From: a virus
Taxonomy: Duplodnaviria; Caudoviricetes
Strand: one strand, 5' to 3'
IMG/VR virus record: IMGVR_UViG_3300035135_000378
Location: 5,907 to 69,906 of that record
Length of the DNA stretch: 64,000 nt
Each line of letters opens with the position of its first letter. Position 1 is the stretch's first letter. The position numbers were made by a program, and so were the translations under genes. Below the pieces are notes generated by a model that saw nothing but the letters and a program-made list of their open reading frames with translations, ran no database searches and was not told the origin of the DNA. Positions 17,533 through 54,542 of the stretch are shown here, piece by piece.

Positions 17533-17714
17533 TAGTAACCCCCACTGTTAAACCATCCTTTCCCCTTCAGTTGGAATCCGTTACCACCAGTAATTACTTT
17601 CTTGAGTTCTGTCTTTTTGCATTTAGGACATTCGCGTATAGGCTCGTCCGAAATTTTCTGAATGCGGTCAAAGTCATGACCGCATGATTTGCAACGATAA
17701 CTATAAGTCGGCAT
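17532..17714 (-). CDS. FmdB-family zinc ribbon protein
   Basis: MPTYSYRCKSCGHDF...CPKC...GFQLKGKGWF. Confidence 0.85.
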   Translation of the reverse strand: MPTYSYRCKSCGHDFDRIQKISDEPIRECPKCKKTELKKVITGGNGFQLKGKGWFNSGGY

Positions 17715-17877
17715 GGTACATATCTCCAACAATCTTAATCGCTCTATCTAGTCCGCTGATTTCTCCGCGAATCATGAGATAGTGGTTTTTGTTCTCTGCG
17801 AGGTTGACTTTGCAGAGACGTTCTTCGAGTTCCCGTCTCTGCGTTTCCAACCGTGCAAGCAGTAGGACTACATTCAT
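17701..17877 (-). CDS. small hypothetical protein (58 aa, not in track)
   Basis: ATGA-coupled to 17874; MNVVLLLARLETQRRELEE... Confidence 0.6.
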   Translation of the reverse strand: MNVVLLLARLETQRRELEERLCKVNLAENKNHYLMIRGEISGLDRAIKIVGDMYHADL

Positions 17878-25874: not shown

Positions 25875-26057
25875 TTAAATGTTTTTGTTAGGTAACAATC
25901 TGCGCAAAATCGCGACGTTATCCTTGCGCTTGTTCTTACGGTCACCTTTCTTGCGGATCACCACAGTAGATGAGTCGTTACCAGCGCCAGCCACTGAACC
26001 AGTAGATACAGATAGTTCTTCTTCGAACTGTTTTTTGAACTCTTCGTAAGTCTTCAT
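25875..26057 (-). CDS. putative internal head protein (capsid targeting sequence-like N-terminus)
   Basis: MKTYEEFKKQFEEE versus T4 IPII/IPIII MKTYQEFIAE. Confidence 0.65.
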   Translation of the reverse strand: MKTYEEFKKQFEEELSVSTGSVAGAGNDSSTVVIRKKGDRKNKRKDNVAILRRLLPNKNI

Positions 26058-26638
26058 ATATCTCTTCCAAGTAGTACCATCTTACCGTCTTTAGTGTGGG
26101 GATCGGTGTTGTCGTACCGATAGATCCCTGCGAGATGGTAGGGGAACCTTTCACTATCAATGTAGTGGTTGATCAAGTGTGTCAGTGACGGATGCATGTA
26201 ATACTCGTAATCGTCTATCAGTATCCACCTGACTCCCGCATACCTCGCGTTCTGGATGTCAAGTGCAGCTATAGACGTGTCGTGTGCACCATCAACGAAC
26301 ACCATATCATACCCTATAATGTCATGGTAGTCAAGGTCTTTCGAATCTAGTTTTTGAAAAGTAAAACGTTCTGGAAACATGTCCATGATCATCTGTGCGT
26401 TCGGTTCTGTGTGATCGTACTGACAGATGTCGATGGAGTGGTAGCGTACGTCTTCGACCGACGACAATACGCACAGTGCACTATGGCCTGCGTTGAATCC
26501 TATCTCTAAAACATTTTTCGCTTTCGTATGATTATATATTCTTTTGACGACCTCAACGGTGCGATCGGTGAGAACTAAATGTCCCTCATCCTCGACCATT
26601 GATGCGTCAAGTGCACGAGACTGCTCAAGGAGTGTCAT
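26054..26638 (-). CDS. class I SAM-dependent methyltransferase (Methyltransf_24-like)
   Basis: VLEIGFNAGHSA, YDMVFVDGAH, ILIDDY. Confidence 0.85.
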   Translation of the reverse strand: MTLLEQSRALDASMVEDEGHLVLTDRTVEVVKRIYNHTKAKNVLEIGFNAGHSALCVLSSVEDVRYHSIDICQYDHTEPNAQMIMDMFPERFTFQKLDSKDLDYHDIIGYDMVFVDGAHDTSIAALDIQNARYAGVRWILIDDYEYYMHPSLTHLINHYIDSERFPYHLAGIYRYDNTDPHTKDGKMVLLGRDI

Positions 26639-27197
26639 CGCGTTTTAGAAGTGCGACTGCATTCTCACCGTCACGGGACTCGTAGGTGTAGACACCTACC
26701 ATCGTGTACGGGAAATCGTCTTTGGTTAGGTGGTGTTCGGTGAGGTCAATAATCGCGGGGAACCATTCCTGTAGATAGTCATCCACAAGAATGTAAGGGA
26801 TATTCGCATCACGTGCGAGCTTCAGATCCGATGAGATACCACGTACACTATGGTCTCCGTCGATAAAGATAGTGTCAAAGTTTTTCAGGGTAGACGGAAT
26901 GAGACGTTTAGAGTCTGCCTTCATGAACGCGAATCGTTCGGGATACTTCTCTTTGAGTTTCTCTGCGTTAGGTACTGTGTACTTGTGCGTTGCTATATCG
27001 ACAGAACAGATCATGACTTCAGGATACATCTCTAACATCATGAACGCACTGTGTCCCGCGTTGAAGCCTATCTCCAGTACTTTCTTTGGACCGATCTGGT
27101 CGTATACCTCACGAAAAGTCTCCTGAGTCTTTTCACTGGGTACTAGGTGACCTTCAATCTTACCTTGAATGTCATCGGTCAAAAAATCTGTGTTCAT
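26625..27197 (-). CDS. class I SAM-dependent methyltransferase (paralog)
   Basis: VLEIGFNAGHSA, FDTIFIDGDH, ILVDDY. Confidence 0.85.
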   Translation of the reverse strand: MNTDFLTDDIQGKIEGHLVPSEKTQETFREVYDQIGPKKVLEIGFNAGHSAFMMLEMYPEVMICSVDIATHKYTVPNAEKLKEKYPERFAFMKADSKRLIPSTLKNFDTIFIDGDHSVRGISSDLKLARDANIPYILVDDYLQEWFPAIIDLTEHHLTKDDFPYTMVGVYTYESRDGENAVALLKRDDTP

Positions 27198-27784
27198 CGG
27201 GTTATTTCGTTAGATGCAAATAGAATGCGGTGACCTGTTCTCATGTGTACTCCTTCGAACACTGGTGCACCTAATATGTTGTGTGTTGGATCACCCTTGG
27301 TGACTCGCACCTGATCACCCTTGCTAACATCGACGCATCCTAGAGTCATCGACTCATTGCGCATACGATATAGGCCTGGACCCAGTGAACCGTCGCTCAG
27401 CAGGTACCACTGTGAGTTTTCTGAGAGTACGTCAAGAATATCGATCCCAGTTTCCGCGTGGATCTTGTCTATCTGTCTGTCGGACAGGTCACCATGTTCT
27501 TTGATCAGTGCAAGTGCCGCACCATAACGTGCGACGAACGATGAACCGCCTGGGGCCTTCGCCATGATCTTCTTCAGGTTAAACACAAGACGATGGAACG
27601 AGGTGTAGTGAGTACGATACGCTTCACGATTGTACATATCGTCTGTATTGAAATCCTTATTCTTATTACCGTCCTTGTCAATGATACCCGCCTTGAACGC
27701 GCCAGTATCCTCGAACTTGGTTACGAGTAACTTTAGAAAACGTATCGTGTATACTACGTCTGCAGCTTGTTTTAGGATTCCCAC
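27194..27784 (-). CDS. conserved T4-like hypothetical protein
   Basis: YT.RFLKLLV..F....AFKAGIID.DG motif. Confidence 0.75.
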   Translation of the reverse strand: MGILKQAADVVYTIRFLKLLVTKFEDTGAFKAGIIDKDGNKNKDFNTDDMYNREAYRTHYTSFHRLVFNLKKIMAKAPGGSSFVARYGAALALIKEHGDLSDRQIDKIHAETGIDILDVLSENSQWYLLSDGSLGPGLYRMRNESMTLGCVDVSKGDQVRVTKGDPTHNILGAPVFEGVHMRTGHRILFASNEITR

Positions 27785-28140
27785 TTCAATTCCCTCAGAT
27801 AATCTATTACGTATTTATCCATTTTGATTCCTGTGATCTCTTCATTTTTTATCGCACGTAGGTAGATCAAGAACGGTTTGAGTGCTGGCCAGTGTTCGAG
27901 AGGAATCTTGAGTGCAAGAATCTGAACCCCCGCTTCGTAACCGAACACATTGAAAATCACAATCAAGTGGTTGAGTATCAAACGATGTGATAGTTCTCCG
28001 GTGGTGTAATACCGATTGATCAATCGCTTCACATACTTGAATCGTTTGAGGTCATCTAGGAACTCATCACCATCAATATGTTTTGGATTGTAGTAGTGTT
28101 TCGCCGCGTATACAACTAAGTTATTCTTGTTTAACTTCAT
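27772..28140 (-). CDS. conserved T4-like hypothetical protein
   Basis: YA.KHY.NP, EF.DDLKRFKYVKRL, LILNHLI...NVFG. Confidence 0.8.
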   Translation of the reverse strand: MKLNKNNLVVYAAKHYYNPKHIDGDEFLDDLKRFKYVKRLINRYYTTGELSHRLILNHLIVIFNVFGYEAGVQILALKIPLEHWPALKPFLIYLRAIKNEEITGIKMDKYVIDYLRELKWES

Positions 28141-29086
28141 AATATGGGTCAATAAACTCTGGTAATGAATAGTCAATCGGTAGTTCCGGTTTGAGTTTAT
28201 TTAGTGCATCGACAAGTGGCTCCATCCAATCGTAGTTGATAATGATGTCTCCGCTCGATGTAACGTTACGCGTTATTGACGATCGGTCTGCGAGTTGCAC
28301 ATAGGTAAAGGCCCAGCGTTCCTTACGTATGCGCATATCTATAACACCATCATGAGCCAACTTACGCAACTGGTGCATCTGGTATGCGTCTTCACCTATA
28401 CGCAGTGTATTGTCGTAGTGCATGAGTTTCGCTGCCTTGCGCGAGAAAAACACGATGCGACTGAATGATTCCTGACGGTCACAGTGGTCCTTGTAGATGT
28501 CGTTCAACTCTCTACGTTTTTTCGCCCAGCGCACTGCAGTGTTCTGAGATACACTGAAGTCTCGCATGTATGCAGCCGCGATGGTCTCTACAGGTAGGTT
28601 CTCGTGTTTGGCGTCCATAGTGTAGTCGTGTGGATACCTTGGTATAAGATCCTGTGGGATATACCAACCATCTCTCTTCACCGTACGAGAATCATACTGA
28701 CCATCCCACAGACCCTTACGGTATCCATGCAGACACAGTTGATTGTAGAGGCATATAACGTCGGGTGCGTCTGGTCGCATCGCAACCGTTCGGTACAGGT
28801 TCCTACCGTACTTGGTAATGATGTCATCACCATCCACATGAACAAAGTACTCGTTGTCACTCTCCAGAAAGAGTTTCAACACAGAGTTCTTTCCCGTTGC
28901 GGCTGTACCGTCGGATTCCGTGACGTAATGTTCTATACCATGTTTGACACAGAACTCTATCGCAGACTGTTCGTAGTCCGTGTCCAGAGTATTGATGACA
29001 ACAACGACATCATTTATTTTGAGTGTATCAAACTGACGAGCCAAGGTCGCGAGACCGTTACTCGTTAGAATATAGTACTTGAACAT
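28121..29086 (-). CDS. GT-A (GT2-like) glycosyltransferase
   Basis: TGKNSVL, VHVDGDD (DxDD), GED. Confidence 0.7.
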   Translation of the reverse strand: MFKYYILTSNGLATLARQFDTLKINDVVVVINTLDTDYEQSAIEFCVKHGIEHYVTESDGTAATGKNSVLKLFLESDNEYFVHVDGDDIITKYGRNLYRTVAMRPDAPDVICLYNQLCLHGYRKGLWDGQYDSRTVKRDGWYIPQDLIPRYPHDYTMDAKHENLPVETIAAAYMRDFSVSQNTAVRWAKKRRELNDIYKDHCDRQESFSRIVFFSRKAAKLMHYDNTLRIGEDAYQMHQLRKLAHDGVIDMRIRKERWAFTYVQLADRSSITRNVTSSGDIIINYDWMEPLVDALNKLKPELPIDYSLPEFIDPYYEVKQE

Positions 29087-29096
29087 TTAGTGGGAG

Positions 29097-29282
29097 TTAC
29101 GCAGACTCAATCTGTGCGATTAGGTCAGCCTTTCGCTTGCGCATATCAAGTTTAATACCGCGACTATCCGCGATCTCTTTCAACTCGGCTTTAGTGAAAG
29201 ATTCTAATGATACATCTACTTTAACCGGAGCCGGGTGAGTTTCCTCACCCTTCCCGAAAAGTTTTTTCAAAAAACTAATCAC
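29097..29282 (-). CDS. small protein with Rho-N/HeH-like domain
   Basis: TKAELKEIA...GI....RK.DLI..I. Confidence 0.65.
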   Translation of the reverse strand: MISFLKKLFGKGEETHPAPVKVDVSLESFTKAELKEIADSRGIKLDMRKRKADLIAQIESA

Positions 29283-29489
29283 TTACTCATCATCCTCTTC
29301 AGATTCATCTTCGACAGGAGCCTCTTCGACTTCTACCTTCTTAGACTTCTTAGGTGCACGTGCTTCACACCATTCGGAGATCTGTGCGTCTGACAAACCA
29401 ACTGCCTTTAATAGTTCACCAGTCTTTGGGTCTACCCAACCTTTAGGTGAAGGCACTGCATGTCTGCACCAACTTGGAGCGTTAATCAT
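29283..29489 (-). CDS. conserved T4-like hypothetical protein
   Basis: AP.WC..AVP...GW.DPKTGELL. Confidence 0.7.
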   Translation of the reverse strand: MINAPSWCRHAVPSPKGWVDPKTGELLKAVGLSDAQISEWCEARAPKKSKKVEVEEAPVEDESEEDDE

Positions 29490-29490
29490 A

Positions 29491-29730
29491 TTAATAACCT
29501 CGTTTTTCTCTAATTTGCATTATGATCAACTCTTTAGTTTGGTTGACCATACCGCGTGTTTCTAGTCCCAGATTCCTAGCCAGATCAAGTAATTCTGGTT
29601 TAGTCATCTGATATAGATTTCTTCGATCACCGTTAGGAATGACGTTAGTGTCTTTCGGACGCGCCCTATTCCTAAGCCAAACTGCAATGACCGCGGCTAC
29701 TGCTACAACTACTGCAATGATCTCGAACAT
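29491..29730 (-). CDS. membrane-anchored protein with Rho-N/HeH-like domain
   Basis: N-terminal TM; MTKPELLDLA..LGL...TKE.II. Confidence 0.65.
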   Translation of the reverse strand: MFEIIAVVVAVAAVIAVWLRNRARPKDTNVIPNGDRRNLYQMTKPELLDLARNLGLETRGMVNQTKELIIMQIREKRGY

Positions 29731-29733
29731 GAT

Positions 29734-30591
29734 TTATTTTCCTTTTACAGGACTCTTATCACCGTTAGATAGGTTGTCTGCACCGTTGCGAGCTGGTGCC
29801 TGCTTCATATCTTTCCCTGCAGCCTTGAAGGTTTTATTGTGACCATCTTCTTCGTCGTCTTCGTACTTCTTCTCAGACTTCTTATGCTTCGCAATAAACT
29901 CTTTAGACTTCGGTGACTCTTTAGAGTCGATCTTTTCTCCCTCAAGTGCATTCGCCTTCGGATTCGCTGCCTCTTGCAACTGAGCCCAAAAGTCTTCGAA
30001 TGTCTCAGCTAGGTCCAGACCATCTACAGGATTGTAGGAATCTGATACTGCATTGAAACTTACGTATACACGTTTGAAAGTACCATTGTTACTCTGGTGG
30101 AACTGAGAGATAGCTTCACTAGAGGAATCACCACGACCACGACCGATTACTTTCTTAGTACCGCTTGAAGTAGTACCGTAGATGGTATATAGACCTTCTT
30201 TAACAGTACCCTCGATCTTAGAAATTTCTGCAGTCTTACCTGCAGGTTTCTTTGCAACTTTCTTTTTATCGTCACCGTCGTCTGCTGGCTTGTCACCACC
30301 ATCGATTGCGTCGTCAGTTGCAGCGCGTTTCTTGTGTAGGTACTCATCCGAAGAATCTACGTCACCGTCATTGTCGATGTCCTTGTCCTTACGATCCTTG
30401 AACTTCTTGTCGTTCTCTTTATCGTCTACTGGATCAAGTTTCTTCTCATGTACACCCTTGTCGTCACAGTGGTCACATCCTTTGCCTTCGCACTTAGGAC
30501 ATTCTTTCGCCTCTGCAACTTCTTCAACTTGCTCAGAGACCGACTGCTTCATAGACAAGTAAGCCTCCATAATTTTATTAATGTTTGACAT
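29734..30591 (-). CDS. highly charged putative prohead core/scaffold-associated protein
   Basis: CPKCEGKGCDHC zinc motif, DIDNDGDVDSSDEY EF-hand-like loop, E/K/D-rich. Confidence 0.7.
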   Translation of the reverse strand: MSNINKIMEAYLSMKQSVSEQVEEVAEAKECPKCEGKGCDHCDDKGVHEKKLDPVDDKENDKKFKDRKDKDIDNDGDVDSSDEYLHKKRAATDDAIDGGDKPADDGDDKKKVAKKPAGKTAEISKIEGTVKEGLYTIYGTTSSGTKKVIGRGRGDSSSEAISQFHQSNNGTFKRVYVSFNAVSDSYNPVDGLDLAETFEDFWAQLQEAANPKANALEGEKIDSKESPKSKEFIAKHKKSEKKYEDDEEDGHNKTFKAAGKDMKQAPARNGADNLSNGDKSPVKGK

Positions 30592-30610
30592 TATGTCAGT
30601 CTCCTAAAAA

Positions 30611-30925
30611 TTACGCGTCAAAAAACATTTTGACAATAATACCGGCGAAGACTGTTGCAGTTAGAGTAATAATATACTGCATAACCTTAACAGTCTTGCC
30701 CTGTTCCTTTACCTCATCTTCCAAATCGTCCATTCTTTGGGAGAATCGATTCATTCTCTCGAAGTGTTGTTGGGCTGACTTGTCGATGTTTATTAATTTC
30801 TCCTCGGCGCGAGCAAGGTTGATCATCGCGTCAGAAAGCTTGTCTATCTTGTCCTCGATTCTTGCGAGGCGCTGTTCTTCACGTTGCACATGCTCATACA
30901 ATTTCTTATCTGTTGTATCTGCCAT
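30611..30925 (-). CDS. coiled-coil protein with C-terminal TM
   Basis: RL.RIE.KIDKL heptads; C-terminal hydrophobic segment. Confidence 0.7.
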   Translation of the reverse strand: MADTTDKKLYEHVQREEQRLARIEDKIDKLSDAMINLARAEEKLINIDKSAQQHFERMNRFSQRMDDLEDEVKEQGKTVKVMQYIITLTATVFAGIIVKMFFDA

Positions 30926-30993
30926 TGTCGGATAAACCCATTAAAGTGAATAGTCTAAGTCATATAATGACTCATTATTTTTTAAGGTAACTC

Positions 30994-31001
30994 TATTTAT
31001 A
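30994..31001 (-). promoter_or_regulatory. T4-type late promoter
   Basis: TATAAATA. Confidence 0.65.
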
Positions 31002-31010
31002 ATGTATCAA

Positions 31011-31328
31011 TTACCATGCTTTGCACGACCAGTATCGCGCCTTCCACTTCGGGCCAGGGTCTGAACAGTTGTGTCTCGCCCTGAAACTCTTCCTACGTGC
31101 AGGGTTGTCTTTTTTAATCTCCATGTTAGGGTCTCCGAATGAGACCTTCACGACATTACCCTTATCGTTTGTTACATAGACGTAGAATTTTTTAGAACCT
31201 CCACGTACAGGCTTGTTCAAGGTAACCGTCTTACCCTGATACTCTGCCTCGGTCAGCTCTAACTCTTCGTCGAGTGATGCACACGCCTCACAACAACCTT
31301 CTTCTACGTACTGTTTAAACTTTTTCAT
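31011..31328 (-). CDS. conserved T4-like protein with capsid-targeting-like N-terminus
   Basis: MKKFKQYVEE; KFYVYV...GNVVKVSFG...ARRKSFRARH.C...RYWSC. Confidence 0.8.
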   Translation of the reverse strand: MKKFKQYVEEGCCEACASLDEELELTEAEYQGKTVTLNKPVRGGSKKFYVYVTNDKGNVVKVSFGDPNMEIKKDNPARRKSFRARHNCSDPGPKWKARYWSCKAW

Positions 31329-31555
31329 GACATAGCGTTCTTGGCGATTGATAAAACGTTCGCCTTTGTTGGTTTTGGGTGACTACCAAGATCTACAACC
31401 TTGCCGCTCTTGGTCTTTAAAGACAGAGAGTATCCGTCTTGCTTACCACGCATACCTTTGGTGTTTCTCTTAGTAGCTGTAACAGTACCGTAAGGTGTTT
31501 GGTGCGCAATCGCAACGTCACCCACTGCTTCTCTCAATTCCTGAAATGTTTTCAT
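31325..31555 (-). CDS. basic protein with capsid-targeting-like N-terminus
   Basis: MKTFQELRE. Confidence 0.7.
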   Translation of the reverse strand: MKTFQELREAVGDVAIAHQTPYGTVTATKRNTKGMRGKQDGYSLSLKTKSGKVVDLGSHPKPTKANVLSIAKNAMS

Positions 31556-31556
31556 T

Positions 31557-31739
31557 TTAACTTCCTCTTGATGCTCCTCGAAATACCTTCGTACCAGATA
31601 CGGGATTAACTGTCTTTCCTACTTTAGTGTTGTGAGGATTGAAGTTAAGTCCACCGTAATTATTATCACTTGTCTGTTGCAGTCTTTGTTTCTTTGCAGC
31701 CGACATCTTTTTATTACGCGGTTTCTTCGATTTGCTCAT
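31557..31739 (-). CDS. small basic hypothetical protein
   Basis: K/R-rich ORF in packed late operon. Confidence 0.6.
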   Translation of the reverse strand: MSKSKKPRNKKMSAAKKQRLQQTSDNNYGGLNFNPHNTKVGKTVNPVSGTKVFRGASRGS

Positions 31740-31747
31740 ACCATGTC

Positions 31748-32194
31748 CTATGTTATGTAACAGTTTAATTCGTATCGACGGTTATCTAAGTTAGTTACCT
31801 GTACCGCCAATCTCTTATTCTTTTGACCAACCAACTTCAAGGTGAAACTATTAGTCTTACCATTAGATGGTTTCTTTGGTCCGGTTGCGACTTTATCATC
31901 GATGTCGCTCTTGTCTACCTCAAAGCCTTTTTTCTTTGCAAATGCATATGACGCCTGCATTGCATCTGAATATGTCTTGTGGTAGATAGGGTAATCGTTC
32001 TTACCTTCTACTGCGTATCCCATCTTCTTCAGGTCATCCTTACTATAAGATGGTGGTGGCTTACTGAAAAAGTCAGATGCCTTCTTAATCTTATCTAGTC
32101 TTTTCTTAGAACCAAGACCATGCTTCGACGCACGAGCGGAAAGACGGTCTTGTGCAGACCGCCTCCCTTCTCGTATTTCAGTAAACTTTTTCAT
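31748..32194 (-). CDS. basic protein with capsid-targeting-like N-terminus
   Basis: MKKFTEIRE; GP.KPS.GKTNSF, YELN.YI. Confidence 0.75.
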   Translation of the reverse strand: MKKFTEIREGRRSAQDRLSARASKHGLGSKKRLDKIKKASDFFSKPPPSYSKDDLKKMGYAVEGKNDYPIYHKTYSDAMQASYAFAKKKGFEVDKSDIDDKVATGPKKPSNGKTNSFTLKLVGQKNKRLAVQVTNLDNRRYELNCYIT

Positions 32195-35100
32195 TATGAT
32201 ATTCTACGTAGAACTAGTAGGCCACCGACACCGTTTTGACCGCTCGCGCCACCAAGGCCTGCACTATCAGTACGATATGGTGCATTGAAATCCAGACCAC
32301 CTGTAGATGCGTCGGTCAACTCCGATGAGATGAAACCGGAACCACCACCACCAGCACCTGGCCCGCTGTTTATACCACCGGCACCACCGAAGTAGCCACC
32401 GCCACCACCAGCACCGACACCTAGACCTGTACCACCTTGTAGTGCAGAGCCTGGGCCACCGGAACCGGAACCACCTGCAGTCTGCGAACCACCTAGTCCA
32501 GCTCGACCACCGTTAGAACCGTTGCCGCCGTTTAGACCACCACCGGCACCACCAGTACCGATATCACCGGAACCACCACCGCCACCACCAGCGATGATTA
32601 GTGCAGACGCTTGAGATACCTCGCTGATGAAGACACCAGTGTAACCACCACCTGCGCCACCGTCGAACTCAGATCCGGTTGACTGTTCGTTTGCACCACC
32701 GCCTGTTGCAAGTGCACCGTATGCAGTGTTGCTGGATGGGTCTTGAGAACCACCTTCACCACCACCACCGACGACTACTTGATACTCAACGCCTGGGACA
32801 AATGTGTATCTACCAGTTGAGTAACCACCATAACCACCTGTGTAGTTACTTGATCTCTTAGTACCACCACCGCCGGCACCCCATAGATGCATTTCCATGA
32901 TCATAGGTTGACCAACAGTGAAACTCGTTGAGTGATAACCCATACCAGCTGCAGCCGCATTCAATGAAATAGTATCGTCGATCGCTAGTTCTGCAGAGTC
33001 AGTTGCATTACCTGTGAATGTAACAGTTGGTGCTGGTGGAATAATTTCTGTCTTATAGTAACGAACTGGTGGTGGTGGATAATCACCTAGTGTCGCAGTT
33101 GGTACAGAGAAGTTTTCTGTGTAGATTGCAGTACCTTTGACAAGTCTAATATCTGCTAGTTTTCCGTGCCAGTAGTTTGTATCTCCTTGCCCAATGAGTG
33201 TCATTCCAGCAGTGAAACTGCCAGTGTAAGATAATGTACTAGATTGCGCCACACCATTAATATACATGGTAATAGTGTTGCTGTTTCTTACAATGGCTAT
33301 ATGATTCCATTCTTGTAACGCAAGTACGGCATTACTGAAGATTTCTTGACGTGGACTTGGACCACCTATCTGGAATGCAATTTGACCCGTTGAACCTACT
33401 TGATTGACTCTCCATGTTTCTGCGGAAGTATATGCACCCGCCTCAACCATTCTTCCCCAAGGGCTTGTAGAAGCATTTTCGTGATAGAACCATGTTTCAA
33501 ACGTAAAGTCTTCAGATCCCATAATAACATCATTGGAAGATGGGACACTTATATAATCACCGCTACCATCAAATGCAATTACGTTACCCGATGTATAAGG
33601 TGACCCAAGAGCTGTTGTGACATCACCATTAAGTGTTAGACTATGTGAAGAAGATGATGCATCTGAAACTCCACCGTTACCTGAGATTAGAAGAGATGTT
33701 CCCGCAACTGCAGTCAATGCAGAAGTAGGTGCAGCAGTTGGTGCAACTGCGCTTCCTTTGATTGCGCGAACATCTGCGATCTTACCAGCGAAGTATGCGT
33801 TACCACCATCGACATCGAATCCTCGACCGATTCTGAACTCACCTACACTGAAGTCAAACGTCTGACCTGAAGAGATGGTTGTAGTACCGTCTTGAGTTCC
33901 GTTTACATAGAACGACAGACTGGTTCCACTACGTACCAATGCGATGTGATGCCACGTGTTGTGACTCAATGTATTGGCTGTAGTTAATGCAGGGTCACCC
34001 AAACCATTTGTGTATAGGAATAGTTTGTTGTCATGACCTACATTATCAAATCTTAATGACGCAGAACCCGCCGCATTATAATCTGAACCTGAGAAAATAC
34101 CTGGCCAGTTAGTAGACTGAGTTGCAGCGTTAATCCACATCTCTACTGTAAAGTCACCACTACCGAAGTTGAAGTCATCATGGTCTGCGATAGAAATATA
34201 ATCACCGTTACCATCGAACGACATAGATGTTGTAGAATCATGTGGTGAACCAGAAACTACCGCAACGTCACCGTTGATAGTTAGTGCGTGTGAGTTGGAT
34301 GAGCTGTCTACAATACCTGAGTCGGTTCCGTTAAGGTGTAGTGATACTTGTGATGGAACTTCTGGAGTAGCCCCATCGAAAGGAGCAGTCGGTACAGAGA
34401 AGTTTTCTGTGTAGACTGCCGTGCCTTTGACGATTCTTAGATCGGAAATCTTTCCTTCGAAGTCTTGTATCGTTCCTCCAAAATATTTTCCAACATATGT
34501 TGTACTACTATTGGTTCCAATATCAACATTATATGCATGACTTCCAACTGCATTTCCATCTTGATAGAAGGTTAATATATTATTTGATCTGACAACAGCA
34601 ACATGAACCCAACGATTACTAATAAAATTGGCAGTCGCATCCACTATGTCAGAACCATTAGCATGATAAAATCTCAGTTTTCCACCGTAACCATAAGTAA
34701 ATGTAAATCCAGTTGAATCTGAGATAATTGTATCGTCATTATCTCCAGTATGATATACAAATGCTTCTACAGTAAAATCTCCTGTTTCAAAATCTATTGA
34801 AGATCCGTTGAGAGTTAAGTAATCACCATTACCGTCGAACGTCATTGACTTACCAGTACCATATGGAGAGTCTTCAACGACAGTAGTATTACCGAATACA
34901 GAAATAGACTCAACACTTTGCGACTCATCACGGATAGCTGCGTTGTTACCTGATAGTAGTAGCGATGTTCCTGTGACTGCCTCTAGTGGTGCAGTTGATG
35001 GAATGAAGTCTGTAGTATAGACTGCTGTTCCTTTGACAACACGAACATCGGAGTAAATAGCATTAGGATTTCCAGAGACAGCGCCCGATGGTTCTGCCGC

Positions 35101-36387
35101 GCCAACTGCAATGCCCGTAGACATATCATCTGATGTTACCCCACTAACATCCGCAGAAACGATCAAAGTGCCGTTTCGATAAAATGATAGATCCGAACCA
35201 TTTCTAACTATCGCAATATGATACCATTCACCAGCAGATATACCGTGAGGAGCATTTATGTTTAGATTAAGAAAAGAAGATAAACCAACTTGTATATTTG
35301 TTGATCCAATTGCTATGTCAAATCCGGTATTACTATTAGTTGGCCCACCACCCAATATCCACGCTGAGGCAGGGTATCCATTTCCACTAGGCATTGTTTT
35401 ATAATATGCCCAAGTTTCTACTGTAAAGTCACCTGTGCCGAAACTAAAGTCGCCGTTTTCATTAGATGAAGTCAGATAATCACCATTACCATCAAACACA
35501 TACGAACCACCGTGCAACGATTCAGAATATCCTACGTAATCATATGGTGAAAACGGTTTTGGATATACATCACCTGTTATAGTTAGATCAGATGATACAT
35601 ATGGTAGATTACATGTTAATAAAGCGGTGTTTGAAATAGATGTTAGTGGTGATGTTGGAGGAGTAAAATCACCAGTATAAACTGCATCATTTACTACTCT
35701 CAAGTCTCTTATATACCCGTTGAATACAGAATAGCTACCTCTGTTACTACCTATAGTAATATCAGTAGATGTCAAATTTACTGAGTTTGATACCGATCCT
35801 TGACTTACACCATTGCCATACAGTGTAAGTGTTCCACCAGAACGGACTAACGCAACATGCACCCATTCATTATCATTAAAGGTAGTTGGACCAGTTATGT
35901 ACCCAAGGTTGTGAGTTCCTGCGTATAAAACATTATTGCTTCTAAACTGAACATTTATACCAGTGTTATTATCAACTGCTATAGGTCTAGTATCCCAGAT
36001 CAACTGATTAGCCGAAGAATCTGTTACATAAACCCATGCCTCGACAGTAAAATCGCCTGTGCCTGGAGGAGTTAATCCAGTTTTTTCTATGTGATTTGTG
36101 CCTGTGTTATATAAAGAGTATCCACCGGAGCGATATGGGCTGAATGATGATTGCGTAACATCACCATTAACCGTAATTGCATGACTGTTAGTTGAACTGT
36201 CAACTACTGAACCGTCAGCAGTTGCAGATGCGTCAAGTAACAAAGATACATCATTAGATGTACTGCTGGTGGTGGATGATACTACATTTCCGTCCACATC
36301 TACTTCGATAGTTCGGAGTGCAGTCTTAGTACCAAAGAGCTGGGTCTTTGGATTTAATTGATGTCCGCCGTAAAATTTGATAGCCAT
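32194..36387 (-). CDS. large fibre/adhesin with four LamG/concanavalin-A-like domains and Gly-rich C-terminal domain
   Basis: repeated FDG.GDY...GDFTVE.W...W.HVA.VR.G....Y.NG...G.I.D.R.VKG.A.YT..F.P units; GGG-rich tail. Confidence 0.85.
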   Translation of the reverse strand: MAIKFYGGHQLNPKTQLFGTKTALRTIEVDVDGNVVSSTTSSTSNDVSLLLDASATADGSVVDSSTNSHAITVNGDVTQSSFSPYRSGGYSLYNTGTNHIEKTGLTPPGTGDFTVEAWVYVTDSSANQLIWDTRPIAVDNNTGINVQFRSNNVLYAGTHNLGYITGPTTFNDNEWVHVALVRSGGTLTLYGNGVSQGSVSNSVNLTSTDITIGSNRGSYSVFNGYIRDLRVVNDAVYTGDFTPPTSPLTSISNTALLTCNLPYVSSDLTITGDVYPKPFSPYDYVGYSESLHGGSYVFDGNGDYLTSSNENGDFSFGTGDFTVETWAYYKTMPSGNGYPASAWILGGGPTNSNTGFDIAIGSTNIQVGLSSFLNLNINAPHGISAGEWYHIAIVRNGSDLSFYRNGTLIVSADVSGVTSDDMSTGIAVGAAEPSGAVSGNPNAIYSDVRVVKGTAVYTTDFIPSTAPLEAVTGTSLLLSGNNAAIRDESQSVESISVFGNTTVVEDSPYGTGKSMTFDGNGDYLTLNGSSIDFETGDFTVEAFVYHTGDNDDTIISDSTGFTFTYGYGGKLRFYHANGSDIVDATANFISNRWVHVAVVRSNNILTFYQDGNAVGSHAYNVDIGTNSSTTYVGKYFGGTIQDFEGKISDLRIVKGTAVYTENFSVPTAPFDGATPEVPSQVSLHLNGTDSGIVDSSSNSHALTINGDVAVVSGSPHDSTTSMSFDGNGDYISIADHDDFNFGSGDFTVEMWINAATQSTNWPGIFSGSDYNAAGSASLRFDNVGHDNKLFLYTNGLGDPALTTANTLSHNTWHHIALVRSGTSLSFYVNGTQDGTTTISSGQTFDFSVGEFRIGRGFDVDGGNAYFAGKIADVRAIKGSAVAPTAAPTSALTAVAGTSLLISGNGGVSDASSSSHSLTLNGDVTTALGSPYTSGNVIAFDGSGDYISVPSSNDVIMGSEDFTFETWFYHENASTSPWGRMVEAGAYTSAETWRVNQVGSTGQIAFQIGGPSPRQEIFSNAVLALQEWNHIAIVRNSNTITMYINGVAQSSTLSYTGSFTAGMTLIGQGDTNYWHGKLADIRLVKGTAIYTENFSVPTATLGDYPPPPVRYYKTEIIPPAPTVTFTGNATDSAELAIDDTISLNAAAAGMGYHSTSFTVGQPMIMEMHLWGAGGGGTKRSSNYTGGYGGYSTGRYTFVPGVEYQVVVGGGGEGGSQDPSSNTAYGALATGGGANEQSTGSEFDGGAGGGYTGVFISEVSQASALIIAGGGGGGSGDIGTGGAGGGLNGGNGSNGGRAGLGGSQTAGGSGSGGPGSALQGGTGLGVGAGGGGGYFGGAGGINSGPGAGGGGSGFISSELTDASTGGLDFNAPYRTDSAGLGGASGQNGVGGLLVLRRIS

Positions 36388-36391
36388 TTGT

Positions 36392-36667
36392 TTACGCCAA
36401 GTCCTTATCGTGGTTTAAATTGCCTTTCTTTTTCTTTACAATGAACGCGTTGACTCGCGCCATTCCCCATTGTTGCGGTGTAGTGCCTGGCCTGTGTCCA
36501 GTTTTCCAAGCGGCAACACCACGATTGTATACCTTACGCAAAGTATCTGCAGAGATACCAGACTTCTTCGCCTTTGCAGCGATACCGTCTGGTCCTTCAT
36601 CCAGATTCCCCATGTCATCATACATGGAGTATCTCTTCTCATCAAGATATGTTTTGAAAGAAATCAT
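36392..36667 (-). CDS. conserved protein with capsid-targeting-like N-terminus
   Basis: MISFKTYLDE; KAKKSGI...VY.RG.AAW..GHRPG...QW..ARVN. Confidence 0.8.
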   Translation of the reverse strand: MISFKTYLDEKRYSMYDDMGNLDEGPDGIAAKAKKSGISADTLRKVYNRGVAAWKTGHRPGTTPQQWGMARVNAFIVKKKKGNLNHDKDLA

Positions 36668-38241
36668 TCGATACCCTTTGTAGTAGTCACTTTACTGTTT
36701 TTCTTGTTGCGGGCTCGTGCACGAGCGAGACGTGCGCGGTCCATCATACTGTCAAACTTTTTCGCGTCAGATGCCTTCTCACGATCGATCATTGTTTTTG
36801 CAACGGCGACCGGATCTGCATTTTCTAACGCAGGTTTCTTTAAAAGTTCGCGCATCGTATCTGCGAGTGCGCGTGAGTTTATTTTCAAATCATACATGCG
36901 AATGACCTTGTCTGCCCAGTAACCTTCACCGTGCTTCGCATTCGATTTGTTCATCAACTCGATTGCATGTTTCGCAACTTTGTTGTATTTATCTTTACTG
37001 ATAGTCTTAGATGCTAGGCGACCTATATCGTGCGCCCATGAACGTTCGTCGATCTCCATGTGTGGAGTATCTTTGACGTACTTCTTCTTGAGTTTATCGG
37101 TTCCCCACTCACCTGCACCACCTTCTTCCTTGACGCAGTTAGGGACCATCTTGTCCCCTTTCTTTTTCATACCGACCTGCTTGTAACCGTTCCAACAGTC
37201 TTCGTCGTACATATCCTTGAACGACTTGGTGTACTTGGATGGTTTGGTCTTTGCGTCTTTGTCGCCTGGGGCTGGTTTGTATGCAGACGAATCATCATCT
37301 GCCTTCTTACCGTGTTTCTTGAAGTGGGCGTCACGTTTTGCCTTGGTAGACTTCGCAAGGCCTTTGTGATATCGTGCCGGTTGTGTACCCTCACGATCTT
37401 TGATGTCTGGATCTTGCTTCTCGACTAGTTCGACTGCGTCTAACCACTTACGCATTCTCTTACCGCCGCTTGTTTCCACTATGACGTAATTTGCACCAAG
37501 GACAGATACAGTAGCCACCTCATCACTTTCTTTGATGACTACCGTATCGCCCATCTCGAACAGCTCACCCGCAACAAACTTCTCGCGAGTATCTGAAACT
37601 GATTCAAGAGTTAGGTGATTACGGAATTCTTTTTCTTCGGTCAGGCCCATACCCCTACGCACGTCGTTGAATAGTTTACGTGCGTCCTTGTTGGACATTG
37701 ACTTTGGTACGCCCTGTGAGAATGAAACGAAATCATTCTTCTGTGCGTTCTCTCTCTGCTTGGATGCGGACATACCCTCCACACCCTCAGCATCTGGATC
37801 TCTCTTACCGGCAGATACTATATTAATACTCTTAAAGTTATAGAACCCGTGACGGGCCTTAACTCCGTTGTACTTGTTAAACAGAACTTCGAATTCTCTA
37901 ATCCTATCGTCACCCACAACCATAGTTACCGAACGGTACCCTTGATCGTAGAGTGCGACTAGTGCGTTGATCGCGGTCTTCACCGACTTATCAACCATTA
38001 CGTTACGCGCATGTTTTGGAAACATCTTACGAACGTGTTTGATCTTATCTTGGTACGACAATGGATTTTTCTTTGCGTCGGATGTTTGCGACACAAACAC
38101 TTTGTAGTCTGATTTACCAGACTTCAGTGCAAGAGTATCCATCACTTTGCCGTGACCGATAGTAGGGGGGTTCATACGTCCGAACGTGAAGTAGACCTCA
38201 CGTTCTTCTTCAACCAAATATTGCGAAAAGTTCTTGATCAT
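36664..38241 (-). CDS. HxGH nucleotidyltransferase (cytidylyltransferase/NMNAT-like) with appended small modules
   Basis: FTFGRMNPPTIGH, VVGDDR, MSASK; N-terminus MIKNFSQYLVEE. Confidence 0.85.
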   Translation of the reverse strand: MIKNFSQYLVEEEREVYFTFGRMNPPTIGHGKVMDTLALKSGKSDYKVFVSQTSDAKKNPLSYQDKIKHVRKMFPKHARNVMVDKSVKTAINALVALYDQGYRSVTMVVGDDRIREFEVLFNKYNGVKARHGFYNFKSINIVSAGKRDPDAEGVEGMSASKQRENAQKNDFVSFSQGVPKSMSNKDARKLFNDVRRGMGLTEEKEFRNHLTLESVSDTREKFVAGELFEMGDTVVIKESDEVATVSVLGANYVIVETSGGKRMRKWLDAVELVEKQDPDIKDREGTQPARYHKGLAKSTKAKRDAHFKKHGKKADDDSSAYKPAPGDKDAKTKPSKYTKSFKDMYDEDCWNGYKQVGMKKKGDKMVPNCVKEEGGAGEWGTDKLKKKYVKDTPHMEIDERSWAHDIGRLASKTISKDKYNKVAKHAIELMNKSNAKHGEGYWADKVIRMYDLKINSRALADTMRELLKKPALENADPVAVAKTMIDREKASDAKKFDSMMDRARLARARARNKKNSKVTTTKGIE

Positions 38242-38696
38242 TTTGACTCGCCACCACCACGTTTCTTAGCTAGTTCGGCCTTACGAACTTTAGGTAGTGC
38301 TTTGCGAGCCGCACGTGTGATCTTCGCCTGCATCTGAGGTTTCTCAAGACGCTTCTCGATTTCTTTCTTACGTGCCAATGACAACTCTGACTTAGGTACA
38401 CCCTTGACTAGTTTCTTGTATAATGCAAGCCTAGCCTGTTTACGTGCACGTTTCTTCAGTTTATCCATGTTCGCAACTTTACGCGCAGCGCGTTTACGAC
38501 CCATTGCAATTCGCGCCTTGTTGCGCTTCATGCGGATCGCCAGTTTACGACGTTGTTGAACATCTAACGCTTCGTCGTACTTACCGCTTCTGCGTTTCTG
38601 TGCATTATATGCTAACTGCGGATCTGTACCGTCCTTACCATCATCGGTAGTATAATCTGCATCAGTAAAGTGTTTAAATGACAGTACTTTTGCCAT
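38238..38696 (-). CDS. highly basic putative DNA-binding head protein
   Basis: MAKVLSFKHF; R/K-rich helices. Confidence 0.75.
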   Translation of the reverse strand: MAKVLSFKHFTDADYTTDDGKDGTDPQLAYNAQKRRSGKYDEALDVQQRRKLAIRMKRNKARIAMGRKRAARKVANMDKLKKRARKQARLALYKKLVKGVPKSELSLARKKEIEKRLEKPQMQAKITRAARKALPKVRKAELAKKRGGGESK

Positions 38697-38725
38697 CTAA
38701 TTAGTCCTCTTTGGTTTATTCCATA

Positions 38726-39946
38726 TTATCTACGGGCGGAATCCCACCCCTTTAATATATCAGATGAAAAGTTGTTGTATGAAAATTCCATACGGTCAAC
38801 CAGTTTCACCGCATCACCACCAAGCGTGTCAATCGCAACATAACCTTCCTCACCTGTCACTTTGTAACCATTAGAGGTTTTAACGAATGTCTCGATTGTT
38901 TTTAATTTGTCAAGACTATTTATAAGCTTTAATTTCGCAAGTACAATGGTCTTTTGCAGTTCAAAGATTTTTTCTAAACTAGCGCGATTCTCAGCTGAGA
39001 AAAAGGCCATTTCATCCTTCATCTTTGCGGTCCACGTGTCCTTACCGCGTTGAGATTTCTTACTTGCGATCTCTTTCTTGTAATAGGCTTGTCTGTTACT
39101 TATCAATCCATTAACGTGTCGTTTTGGGTCTGGGAGTAACGCACCCGCACGTACGAAGGAATTGTTGTATGTTTCGATTGCACCTGCGAACTTAGGGTTC
39201 GCTTCGAGTGTGCGCAACGTTGTACCGGAGATCTGGTTGAATATTTTACCTGCAGTCGATAGGAGTGCAGTCACAGCCTCAGTCTCTCGTTGAGTCATAG
39301 TTGCATTGGTTAGATCTTTCAACATCGCGTCCTGTGACCATACGTTGCGTGATTTGCGGAACGATGCAACATCTACACCGTACGACGCTCTCATATTTTC
39401 GAAAGAATCACCCGTGTAGGTTGTGTGCCAGACGATACCGATCTTGGCTGCACGTAACTCCGCAGCCTCTTTCCAAGGGACTGCATATGCAATCGTGTTT
39501 GGGTGGAACATGACGTATCGTTGACCGTCGATCTTTTTACCGTATAGGTCTTTGCGGCTGAACAGGAAGTCACCTTGGACGACACCCTTGATACCTAACT
39601 CAGGTAGATACTTCAGTGCGTCTTTCAGTTTTGCATTGAGGTCACCCTTGGTGTCCGCGTCGATGTCCGCGTCAGTTTTGTAGACCTTCGGGTTCTTGTT
39701 GAAGATACCTTTCTTTGCAACGAAGAACTTACCGTCACGTGGATCAGTTCCCGCAAACACTGCAGGCGCACCGTCCCACTTCACGGAGACGTTACCCTTC
39801 GCAGTACCAGCCAACATGTCACGCAGTCCACGCAGTGCATTGATCGCCTCGCGTGTCCCATTGACTCCACCGTAAAGAACCTTGTCCTCGATGTGAGTCA
39901 TGTGGGTGTTTTTCTGCTCCGTTATGAATTCACCAAAATTTTCCAT
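38726..39946 (-). CDS. ligase-like covalent nucleotidyltransferase-fold protein of unknown function
   Basis: VKWDG (KxDG motif I), QGDFLF, EGYV, VKLVDR; N-terminus MENFGEFITE. Confidence 0.7.
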   Translation of the reverse strand: MENFGEFITEQKNTHMTHIEDKVLYGGVNGTREAINALRGLRDMLAGTAKGNVSVKWDGAPAVFAGTDPRDGKFFVAKKGIFNKNPKVYKTDADIDADTKGDLNAKLKDALKYLPELGIKGVVQGDFLFSRKDLYGKKIDGQRYVMFHPNTIAYAVPWKEAAELRAAKIGIVWHTTYTGDSFENMRASYGVDVASFRKSRNVWSQDAMLKDLTNATMTQRETEAVTALLSTAGKIFNQISGTTLRTLEANPKFAGAIETYNNSFVRAGALLPDPKRHVNGLISNRQAYYKKEIASKKSQRGKDTWTAKMKDEMAFFSAENRASLEKIFELQKTIVLAKLKLINSLDKLKTIETFVKTSNGYKVTGEEGYVAIDTLGGDAVKLVDRMEFSYNNFSSDILKGWDSARR

Positions 39947-40734
39947 TAGTTGTCTACCAGTATCAAGTCAAACGTTGCGGAAACCTGTGTGGCCTGTCCA
40001 GCAAGCGCATCTACTCTTATATCAGTCATCTCTTCGAAACGCAATGGTACCGGATAGTTGATATCCAAACTCTGGCCACCAGCCGCGTTAAAATTACCTT
40101 TAATGTTAAACGCACCACCGAACGGTCTTGCGAACAGACGATAGGTCATCGCAGTGTTGGTTGACGCCTTATCAGAACCCATGTGTAGGTCTAACAGATA
40201 TGCAGTCTTACCAGCAGGAACCGTGTAGACAGCCATCAACGTCTGACCCAACCCTTCTAGGATTTTCGCAGCGAGTGCACCACCCTGTAGGATTTCGATG
40301 TCTTGAGTATTGTTTGCATCTACCATACGTGCACGGAAGACGCGAGAGAAGATTGTACCAGAGAATCCAGTACCGATTGCGACGTTCTCTACAACCAAGT
40401 TGTAACTGTCGTCCAGACCTTGAACCTCGACAATCTTACCGTCGTCCGCAGGGCCAGACACACCAATCACATTGACCGCACCTGCGGCAGGGTATGGGTA
40501 TAAGTCACTACCTGAGTTACCGTCCCAGACGGTTCCCGCAGTGATGTCGCCATCTGTCGCACCAAACTTGTTGATATGCGAGTAACCCTCAAGGGCTCCT
40601 GCGGCGATGGGGATATTAGATGCGGAACCGAACGTGTTCAGGATATTACCGAACTTGTCCGCAAGCATCACCACTTCGTGTATATCAGTGGCATGACCCA
40701 GATGTTTTTGTTGTTGTACACTATATTGTGCCAT
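39946..40734 (-). CDS. putative structural protein
   Basis: INKFG...TVW, QTLMAVYTVPAGKTAYL. Confidence 0.7.
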   Translation of the reverse strand: MAQYSVQQQKHLGHATDIHEVVMLADKFGNILNTFGSASNIPIAAGALEGYSHINKFGATDGDITAGTVWDGNSGSDLYPYPAAGAVNVIGVSGPADDGKIVEVQGLDDSYNLVVENVAIGTGFSGTIFSRVFRARMVDANNTQDIEILQGGALAAKILEGLGQTLMAVYTVPAGKTAYLLDLHMGSDKASTNTAMTYRLFARPFGGAFNIKGNFNAAGGQSLDINYPVPLRFEEMTDIRVDALAGQATQVSATFDLILVDN

Positions 40735-42065: not shown

Positions 42066-42073
42066 TATTTATA
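42066..42073 (-). promoter_or_regulatory. T4-type late promoter (nested in a sigma70-like TTGACA-16-TATACT)
   Basis: TATAAATA upstream of 42026. Confidence 0.7.
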
Positions 42074-53827: not shown

Positions 53828-54511
53828 CTAGCCCTTCACCCTCTTGATTGCCTGCTTCTCCACCTCAATCCAACGCTTTGCCTTCGCAGAGTGTGGACCG
53901 TTAGTGAATTTCTTTGCATCGCGATATGCGCGTAGGGTTTCTTGATTATAATCTTTACCTTCGGAGTTGTCCACCACCAAGAAGTTTTGTTTTCCAAACA
54001 TCTGCTGGAACTTACCCGTATTGGCCTGTACCGCCTTCCAATACGATTCGACTTCTTTGTCAGGGAGTGAACGGGCACGCATACGGTTACGTTGTAATGC
54101 AGTGTCTAGGTCTGTGTTGACGAATATCATTGCGACATCGTAACCTAGATCTTTAACCTTCTGTGCCTGTGCTGCGATTTTGTCTGGATCTTTACCAGTA
54201 CCGTCTACGACAAGACCAAGGCGTCCCTTCAGGTAACGCTCTTCTTTCTTGCCAGTTAGTTTCTTTGCCTTACCACGAAGTTCTTGACCCTTCGGTGAGA
54301 AAATGTTGTCCGGAGTCATCTCCATACCAACCTTCTTCATGGCAGATTCGAACGCATCGTCGGAGTTAACAACCTTGTAACCCATAGAAGTCAGTCCGGT
54401 CTTACCGACGATGAAGGACTTACCAGATCCTGGCCCACCCGCAAGGAAGATTGCCTTGAAGATGGCAGGGTCATTGACCCCTTCATTCAAAAATGACTTA
54501 AAGGTTAACAT
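53828..54511 (-). CDS. P-loop kinase (zeta-toxin/AAA_33/PNK-like) with capsid-targeting-like N-terminus
   Basis: MLTFKSFLNE; FLAGGPGSGKS, VNSDD, VVDGT, A..RN..R.R lid. Confidence 0.8.
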   Translation of the reverse strand: MLTFKSFLNEGVNDPAIFKAIFLAGGPGSGKSFIVGKTGLTSMGYKVVNSDDAFESAMKKVGMEMTPDNIFSPKGQELRGKAKKLTGKKEERYLKGRLGLVVDGTGKDPDKIAAQAQKVKDLGYDVAMIFVNTDLDTALQRNRMRARSLPDKEVESYWKAVQANTGKFQQMFGKQNFLVVDNSEGKDYNQETLRAYRDAKKFTNGPHSAKAKRWIEVEKQAIKRVKG

Positions 54512-54534: not shown

Positions 54535-54542
54535 TATTTATA
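54535..54542 (-). promoter_or_regulatory. T4-type late promoter
   Basis: TATAAATA upstream of the kinase. Confidence 0.75.

Follow-up and report, generated by a model that had tools for sequence, protein, structure and literature searches.

Nine open reading frames (ORFs) on the minus strand of a 64-kb stretch of viral DNA (the window), taken from the 69.9-kb contig of IMG/VR record IMGVR_UViG_3300035135_000378, begin with closely similar leaders of about ten residues, and these nine N-termini are probably capsid targeting sequences of the T4 IPII/IPIII type, marking their bearers as cargo packaged in the phage head. The interpretation had been put forward in a first-pass annotation of the sequence and was retained on the basis of motif statistics, cross-validation on T4 and the virion proteomes of cyanophages with orthologous proteins, with the reservation that the count of nine includes weak leaders. 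The leader is shared, is identical in kind with the T4 signal at the sequence level, is spread over unrelated proteins, co-occurs with a prohead protease gene and is carried by orthologues in virions. Cargo directed by capsid targeting sequences is already known from T4; the case described here concerns a phage family far from T4, with enzymes among the cargo.

The phage is an uncultured marine T4-like virus of a Kyanoviridae-like branch, far from the genus Tequatrovirus. Nearly all genes of the contig are on the minus strand, and nrdA/B, UvsX, a gp41-type helicase and a DNA polymerase are among them. The nearest record is C48C1 (Kyanoviridae, 156 kb), with about 78% nucleotide identity across part of the region; megablast of the region against phage records returned C48C1 and a short DLP6 piece only. 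The gene order from gp41 to nrdA is the same as in T4-like cyanophages such as P-SSM4 and S-SM1.

Leader-bearing genes of the window

All nine starts and N-termini listed in the first-pass annotation were confirmed on the minus strand, and each ATG is preceded by a Shine-Dalgarno-like sequence or overlaps the stop of the upstream gene. The ORFs are named below by their start positions. ORF 26057 (25875..26057) encodes a basic protein of 60 residues (isoelectric point (pI) 10.0) with the leader MKTYEEFKKQFEEE; its beginning MKTYEEF resembles that of IPI, its first 12 residues contain no L/I-x-E, and it was classed as a weak member, its orthologue in locus L034 starting with MKSFSKFYEE. Three small basic proteins are encoded close together, namely ORF 31328 (31011..31328; 105 residues, phrog_7595) with the leader MKKFKQYVEE, ORF 31555 (31325..31555; 76 residues) with MKTFQELRE followed by AVGDVAIAH, and ORF 32194 (31748..32194; 148 residues, net charge +17) with MKKFTEIRE, with which its C48C1 orthologue also starts. 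Amid these small leader-bearing genes, a leaderless protein of 60 residues (31557-31739) is extremely basic (pI 11.7) and starts with MSKSKKPRNKK.

Four further leaders are carried by a run of adjoining genes. ORF 36667 (36392..36667) encodes a DUF5824 protein of 91 residues (PF19141, 71.9 bits) with MISFKTYLDE, and ORF 38241 (36664..38241) a cytidylyltransferase-like HxGH nucleotidyltransferase of 525 residues with MIKNFSQYLVEE, in which there is one residue extra. ORF 38696 (38238..38696) encodes a very basic protein of 152 residues (pI 10.9, net charge +32), which was classed as the second weak member: in its leader, MAKVLSFKHFTD, the motif is three residues out of register and has Asp at its end. 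Its orthologues elsewhere have the canonical starts MLSFKQFVSE or MLSFINFISE. An alternative in-register start for ORF 38696 was ruled out, the codon of Val-4 being GTA. ORF 39946 (38726..39946) encodes a DUF6267 protein of 406 residues (PF19782, 340 bits) with MENFGEFITE. The ninth gene, ORF 54511 (53828..54511), lies apart and encodes a P-loop kinase of 227 residues (AAA_33/Zeta_toxin, polynucleotide-kinase-like) with MLTFKSFLNE. The earlier figure of at least nine cargo proteins includes the weak leaders of ORFs 26057 and 38696.

Behind the leaders the proteins differ. BLAST among the nine bore out the description of their bodies as unrelated (best E value 0.015), with the caveat that DUF5824, clear in ORF 36667, was also found below threshold in the cytidylyltransferase-like protein. 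What the bodies have in common is charge: all nine are basic (pI 9.2-10.9), whereas their leaderless neighbours are acidic, and a pI above 9 is found in nine of nine bearers versus 30% of the contig ORFs (P = 6e-6).

Motif frequency and comparison with T4

The strict motif was defined as ^M..[FY]..[FYLIVMW].{1,2}E, and its expected number was calculated from the rate at any position in the same proteins. It heads 6 of the 128 contig ORFs against 0.49 expected, all within 31011-39946 and at 54511; with one additional residue allowed, nine ORF starts were matched against 1.3 expected. The very loose motif of the first-pass annotation is also enriched (12 observed, 3.9 expected), and it includes chance matches at 662, 11489 and 20037. 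In the complete C48C1 genome the strict motif was found five times against 0.83 expected; four of these ORFs are orthologues of window genes and the fifth is a 65-residue ORF directly upstream of the prohead protease gene. An equal frequency of the motif at the starts of early genes had been named beforehand as an observation that would speak against the interpretation; no matches were found in the replication and early regions of the contig or of C48C1, and in S-SM1 likewise the motif is not equally common at early-gene starts.

A set of 80 IMG/VR loci with DUF6267 relatives at 52-81% identity, amounting to 832 kb and 1271 ORFs, showed the same signature: 106 ORFs, every one of them on the gene strand, start with the strict motif, and 5.1 would be expected. 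The ORFs matched by the looser motif in these loci form 38 sequence clusters. Pfam searches of 20 leader-bearing proteins from the loci gave one HAD phosphatase and one weak SH3-like match and left the others, the large majority, without a family. Basic proteins make up 88% of the bearers in these loci versus 44% of the other ORFs. Homologues in phages DLP6 (host Stenotrophomonas) and Melnitz (host Methylophilales) have the leader as well.

To avoid circularity, a position matrix was derived from other genomes, by using the first 11 residues of 79 DUF6267 homologues with at least 13 residues before the domain. These were representatives of clusters at 50% identity; a plain listing of DUF6267 homologues gave relatives of at least 79% identity only, and the search of representatives was used. 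The matrix consensus is M-K-S-F-K-Q-F-L-T-E-E. Scores of at least 10 (0.007 expected) were obtained for three unrelated window proteins, ORF 31328 (17.2, the highest among the window ORFs), ORF 54511 (16.4) and ORF 36667 (11.2). Applied to 45 kb of the T4 genome (NC_000866), the same matrix gave its three highest scores among 81 ORFs to IPI, IPIII and IPII, where 0.03 ORFs would be expected to score as high; IPII and IPIII start with MKTYQEFIAE and IPI with MKTFKEF. Because a matrix made from DUF6267 N-termini ranks the T4 internal proteins first, the leader of the marine phages and the capsid targeting sequence of T4 are one signal at the sequence level.

T4 genetics assigns targeting to residues 4 and 7 (Tyr4 and Phe7 in IPIII) and processing to residues 8 and 10; when position 10 is Asp, targeting still takes place and cleavage does not (PMC9026906). 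Seven of the nine window leaders have Phe or Tyr at position 4 and Phe, Tyr, Leu or Ile at position 7, the register being +1 in ORF 38241 and +3 in ORF 38696. The gp21-type processing residues (Ile or Leu at 8, Glu at 10) are found in ORFs 31328 (as V-E-E), 36667, 38241, 39946 and 54511, and ORFs 31555 and 32194 have L/I-R-E with Glu at position 9, not 10. Among 86 leaders with Glu10, position 8, which is unconstrained by the motif, is Ile, Leu or Val in 76 (88%), a preference matching the L/I-x-E specificity of T4 gp21; the residue following the Glu is mostly Ala or Gly. The codons of the leader differ among the nine genes, which argues for selection on the peptide. A DNA-level repeat or recombination cassette was considered as the source of the likeness and was ruled out by these differing codons.

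Virion proteomes, late promoters and head genes

Orthologues of the leader-bearing proteins have been detected in purified virions of cyanophages. In S-SM1, a "cytidylyltransferase" (T4-GC190) was recorded with 25 peptide counts and GC1455 with 7 (Sullivan et al. 2010, PMC3037559). GC1455 was assigned to SSM1_192 via gene length. According to record GU071094, T4-GC190 (387 residues) starts with MKKFSAFLNE and SSM1_192 with MLSFKELQE, and these are two of just three strict-motif ORFs in the 174-kb S-SM1 genome; the adjacent DUF6267 protein (T4-GC71) is leaderless and carries no proteomic flag, not being listed in the virion proteome. The cytidylyltransferase gp154 of S-CREM2 is likewise listed as a virion protein (Liu et al. 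2023, PMC10665884), and its N-terminus is MKNFSSFLTE. Term searches of the texts of PMC3037559 and PMC10665884 found no mention of a targeting sequence or propeptide. Full-text literature searches, whose coverage was incomplete and which give no proof of absence, returned no description of capsid targeting in cyanophages or of DUF6267. The leader would account for the presence of a "cytidylyltransferase" in the virion proteomes of cyanophages.

The two strands of the window together have ten late-promoter-like sites (TATAAATA), and 1.85 would be expected. On the minus strand, one (54535..54542) is 24 nt upstream of the kinase start, another (42066..42073) is at the head of the gene run 42026-36392, in which the genes abut or overlap and which contains the DUF6267, basic-protein, nucleotidyltransferase and DUF5824 genes, a third (38917..38924) is within the DUF6267 gene upstream of ORF 38696, and a further one is at 30994 on the gene strand (-). 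From these positions, the leader-bearing genes are predicted to be expressed late.

C48C1 has genes for a prohead protease (Peptidase_S77), a scaffold (T4_CASP) and a capsid protein (Gp23). Peptidase_S77 was found in nine of nine complete leader-bearing records, namely S-SM1, P-SSM4, S-CREM2, DLP6, Melnitz, HTVC008M, C48C1 and two complete IMG/VR genomes. The proteases themselves begin with M-[KR]-L-I-[SA]-E, a start whose sequence recalls the LIE site noted for T4 gp21 (PMC9026906). The 65-residue ORF directly upstream of the protease gene is conserved, with the start MRTFKELRE in C48C1 (L103:1233-1430) and MKTFRDVRTKKEK in the IMG/VR genome G001 (L104:1229-1426); in the GenBank record of C48C1 a shorter start is annotated. 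Its MRTF/MKTF start is like that of the internal proteins, and it occupies the position of T4 genes 67 and 68.

The leader as a separable module

About 45 of 150 DUF6267 representatives have a strict leader directly before the domain, and others begin at the domain itself. In the AlphaFold2 model of the window DUF6267 protein (mean predicted local distance difference test score 93), residues 1-11 score below 50 and are disordered.

A natural variant places the boundary of the module more exactly. In L011, a relative of 99% identity, the counterpart of ORF 31555 (17687-18127) has 146 residues, consisting of its own leader, 70 additional residues, TELTE and the AVGDVAIAH body. The 76-residue form differs by an in-frame deletion between two repeats coding for E-L-x-E (GAATTGAGAGAA and GAGTTGACTGAA), with Ala following the join. 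Because the deletion joins these two repeats, the module boundary falls exactly at the predicted cleavage site, and both forms would share the mature N-terminus AVGDVAIAH if cut after Glu.

Another family differs in this respect between lineages. The 427-residue protein encoded at 40743-42026 (phrog_1462, GTG start) is leaderless in the window, and its homologues in the related contigs L024, L035, L066 and L082, and probably Melnitz gp15, carry a leader (MIGFGTFLSE, MITFDFLRE, MQGFKTFLSE), from which a lineage-specific gain or loss of the tag is read.

Proposed pathway and alternative explanations

By analogy with T4, the leader-bearing proteins would be made late in infection. The leader of about 10 residues, with an aromatic residue at position 4 and an aromatic or hydrophobic one at position 7, would dock each protein on a gp22-type scaffolding core during prohead building, a gp21-family (Peptidase_S77) protease would cut after the Glu of I/L-x-E (positions 8-10) to leave a mature basic protein in the head, and the mature protein would remain with the DNA and probably exit with it at infection. 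The cargo would consist of small basic proteins, analogous to the T4 internal proteins, and of enzymes or enzyme-like proteins, namely the RNA-ligase-like DUF6267 protein, the HxGH nucleotidyltransferase, the DUF5824 protein and the P-loop kinase. We infer packaging, docking, cleavage and ejection of these particular proteins by analogy, and their injection "before any phage transcription", as the first-pass annotation had it, would be an extension of the same analogy. A wider proposal, for which our confidence is low, would make the T4 capsid targeting sequence an ancient, nearly unchanged tag across the T4 superfamily (cyano-, pelagi- and methylophages), by which a pre-made enzyme pathway (DUF6267, kinase, HxGH and DUF5824 proteins) is loaded, enters with the DNA and repairs or restores RNA or nucleotides hit by host defences before phage expression; if this were true, the injected proteome of these phages would be readable from the genome sequence.

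Several observations weigh against assigning all nine proteins to the head as processed cargo. The head module is absent from the 69.9-kb contig, the protease and scaffold being seen only in close relatives. The published proteomes give virion presence of orthologues, not head location, leader loss or ejection, and in the same S-SM1 block the leaderless proteins GC1453, 1454, 425 and 426 are virion proteins too; because several leaderless proteins of the block are in virions, virion presence there is not specific to the tag. In ORFs 31555 and 32194, Arg occupies position 8, so the cleavage context is unlike that of T4. ORF 26057 has no I/L-x-E, and the shifted leader of ORF 38696 ends in Asp, the residue that in T4 stops cleavage, not targeting. 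In Pelagibacter phage HTVC008M, the leaders are degenerate.

The leader might target the prohead while its bearers have an accessory role in the core or scaffold there, as gp67 and gp68 do in T4, and are degraded, expelled or retained undelivered. The MRTF/MKTF ORF at the gene 67/68 position in C48C1 and G001 is consistent with such a role, as is the second internal L-x-E followed by Ala in the 146-residue variant, as in multiply cleaved core proteins. However, the 387-residue cytidylyltransferase was recorded with 25 peptide counts in mature S-SM1 virions, hence it was not cleared; a scaffold role is unlikely for folded enzymes of 230-525 residues with conserved catalytic motifs; and T4 proteins with exactly this leader type are retained in the head and ejected (PMC9026906), so that this explanation is considered improbable. 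Still less probable is an association of the bearers with the virion outside the head (tail, baseplate or surface), with the N-terminus as a docking peptide for a structural partner. Common N-terminal docking peptides are known from receptor-binding proteins, and the block encodes leaderless proteins of virion type, such as a homologue of S-CREM2 gp176 (39946-40734) and a LamG-repeat protein (32194-36387). Against an outside location, the leader agrees position by position with the T4 head signal, the protease site included, and its bearers are basic and DNA-compatible, whereas the leaderless neighbours are acidic; the enzymes also have no structural repeats.

A tag recognized by another enzyme, for example a radical-SAM maturase, or one for membrane or secretion targeting, is very improbable. 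A radical-SAM enzyme is indeed encoded in the window and in C48C1, but Radical_SAM is missing from S-SM1, P-SSM4, S-CREM2 and DLP6 (four of five leader-bearing genomes), in all four of which Peptidase_S77 is present, and the leader has neither a hydrophobic stretch nor a Cys/Ser/Thr core. The radical-SAM tag was rejected by this co-occurrence test. Chance, or a codon bias at translation initiation (A-rich codons after ATG), is the least credible source of the likeness. Bacterial and phage proteins often have Lys at positions 2, 3 and 5, and a loose motif catches some unrelated ORFs; the motif is nevertheless enriched in three independent data sets (the contig, C48C1 and the 80 loci), an enrichment stated as 12- to 20-fold, the conserved features are Phe/Tyr 4, Tyr/Phe 7, Ile/Leu 8 and Glu 10 rather than A-rich codons, the codons vary, and the matches are restricted to one late block. 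Chance and codon bias are excluded by these controls, and roles as core accessories or elsewhere in the virion are less likely than capsid targeting of head-packaged cargo.

Enzymes among the candidate cargo

The three enzyme motifs claimed earlier were recovered as an HxGH nucleotidyltransferase, a P-loop kinase and a DUF6267 protein with ligase-like motifs. The nucleotidyltransferase (36664-38241) was matched by PF01467 with 23.3 bits (cut-off 21) and by phrog_3041/395, and its HxGH motif is FGRMNPPTIGH; NCBIfam gave nothing useful for seven cargo proteins including this one. The kinase (53828-54511) was matched by AAA_33 (43.5 bits) and Zeta_toxin (41.9 bits), with the Walker A motif GGPGSG and a weak PHROG match to polynucleotide kinase. 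The C-terminal extension of the cytidylyltransferase-like protein belongs to the PHROG families phrog_22379 and phrog_4359, and so does a 285-residue acidic protein (29734-30591) with a CPKCEGKGCDHC zinc-ribbon-like motif; the two may have a domain in common.

In DUF6267, K56-x-D58-G59 (the KxDG of motif I), E367-G368 and K381 are invariant in 62 diverse homologues. When the AlphaFold2 model was searched by using VIA-align, the RNA ligases 5cot (Z 8.2, 182 residues), 1s68 (Z 7.8, 178), 9r3w (Z 7.7, 200) and 1xdn (Z 7.7, 193) were obtained, and among the top 20 rows the matches over more than 160 residues were all RNA ligases but one poor-fit F-BAR row (root-mean-square deviation 14.8). The ligase matches have Z values of 7-8.2 over 166-203 residues, Z of about 8 being the noise level of the tool. 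Foldseek of the model against PDB gave none at E of 0.001 or below, with ligases among the weak rows only, and a profile search of PDB sequences with DUF6267 gave no ligase and only spurious weak matches. The long matches, near the noise level as they are, are taken as suggestive of an RNA-ligase-like nucleotidyltransferase fold.

Gene fusions in other metagenomes join the same proteins. The P-loop kinase homologue is fused to DUF6267 in P0121, a homologue of the 31011-31328 protein is fused N-terminally to DUF6267 in P0124, and DUF6267, nucleotidyltransferase and DUF5824 form one protein in P0123; the fusions (P0121, P0123, P0124, P0178 and P0229) also include HxGH nucleotidyltransferase with DUF6267. 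Because of these fusions, at least five of the nine cargo proteins probably work together. Outside the window, a HAD-superfamily phosphatase (DxDxT; weak Pfam Acid_phosphat_B) with the same leader is encoded in two of the related loci (L047:6330-6947 and L096:9384-10004), a cargo absent from the window.

Comparison with known systems

The leader-bearing proteins resemble the T4 internal proteins in having an N-terminal leader of about 10 residues on unrelated basic late proteins, with an aromatic residue at 4, an aromatic or hydrophobic residue at 7, Ile or Leu at 8 and Glu at 10. Where T4 has MKTYQEFIAE, the marine consensus is M-K-S-F-K-x-[YF]-[IL]-x-E, with Phe in place of Tyr at position 4. 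In both cases the cargo is hypervariable between close relatives, and phages of the present lineage, too, encode a gp21-family protease and a gp22-family scaffold. Unlike the T4 internal proteins, several cargo proteins here are large enzymes, not small nuclease inhibitors, and their packaging is predicted from sequence. The T4 internal proteins are the textbook case of anti-defence proteins that a phage injects, and each of Ip1-3 blocks a type IV restriction enzyme. To our knowledge, internal proteins of this kind had been found via their shared leader in T-even coliphages only.

Large packaged enzymes have a precedent in T4 Alt, an ADP-ribosyltransferase of several hundred residues with a short N-terminal propeptide, an I/L-x-E cut and delivery with the DNA. 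Alt differs in the type of its leader (MELITE) and in a further trimming at the C-terminus (PMC5694885), and the enzyme folds here are unrelated to it. The closest counterpart is the virion cytidylyltransferase of cyanophages (T4-GC190 in S-SM1, gp154 in S-CREM2), an orthologous HxGH enzyme with the same leader in the same gp41/mazG-nrdA neighbourhood, although the window protein is longer (525 residues) and has a C-terminal extension with a weak DUF5824 signal. In the giant phages phiKZ and SPN3US, many head-packaged proteins are likewise cut after the Glu of a short motif by a gp21-related protease, but their propeptides are mostly longer than 100 residues and their motifs (for example ALE and AQE) have Ala two residues before the Glu, not Ile or Leu (PMC5694885).

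A likeness to RNA repair, as carried out by T4 Pnkp with Rnl1/Rnl2 or by fungal Trl1 (ligase and kinase), is suggested for the enzyme set. The best long alignments of the DUF6267 model are RNA ligases, its KxDG is invariant, and Trl1 joins ligase and kinase much as some phages fuse the P-loop kinase to DUF6267; DUF6267 has no significant sequence match to any solved ligase, and its fold scores are only moderate. Packaging in the virion is not known for T4 Pnkp or Rnl1. If delivered from the head, the set of ligase-like, kinase and nucleotidyltransferase proteins may be active as soon as infection begins.

The same leader was found, nearly letter for letter, on dozens of unrelated and mostly uncharacterised proteins of marine T4-like phages and of relatives infecting cyanobacteria, Methylophilales and Stenotrophomonas. 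It offers a simple sequence rule by which candidate packaged or injected proteins can be listed in some of the most abundant viruses on Earth, and such leaders could be used as packaging tags for the engineering of non-coli phages.

Neighbouring genes

Two leaderless genes of virion type lie among the leader-bearing ones. The gene at 32194-36387 encodes an acidic leaderless protein of 1397 residues with five Laminin_G_3 (concanavalin-like) repeats and, at its C-terminus, a glycine-rich domain of ALK/LTK type, and its PHROG matches are annotated as virion structural protein or baseplate wedge subunit. The counterpart in L011 has 1162 residues, so the number of repeats varies. The gene at 39946-40734, just upstream of the DUF6267 gene, encodes an acidic protein of 262 residues (phrog_8198), the N-terminal region of which is like that of gp176 from S-CREM2, for which 20 unique peptides were recorded in virions (PMC10665884); the window protein, too, probably has a structural role in the virion.

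Two tandem overlapping Methyltransf_24 paralogues of 194 and 190 residues, respectively (26054-27197), immediately precede ORF 26057, the first leader-bearing gene, in the order of transcription; both are without the leader.

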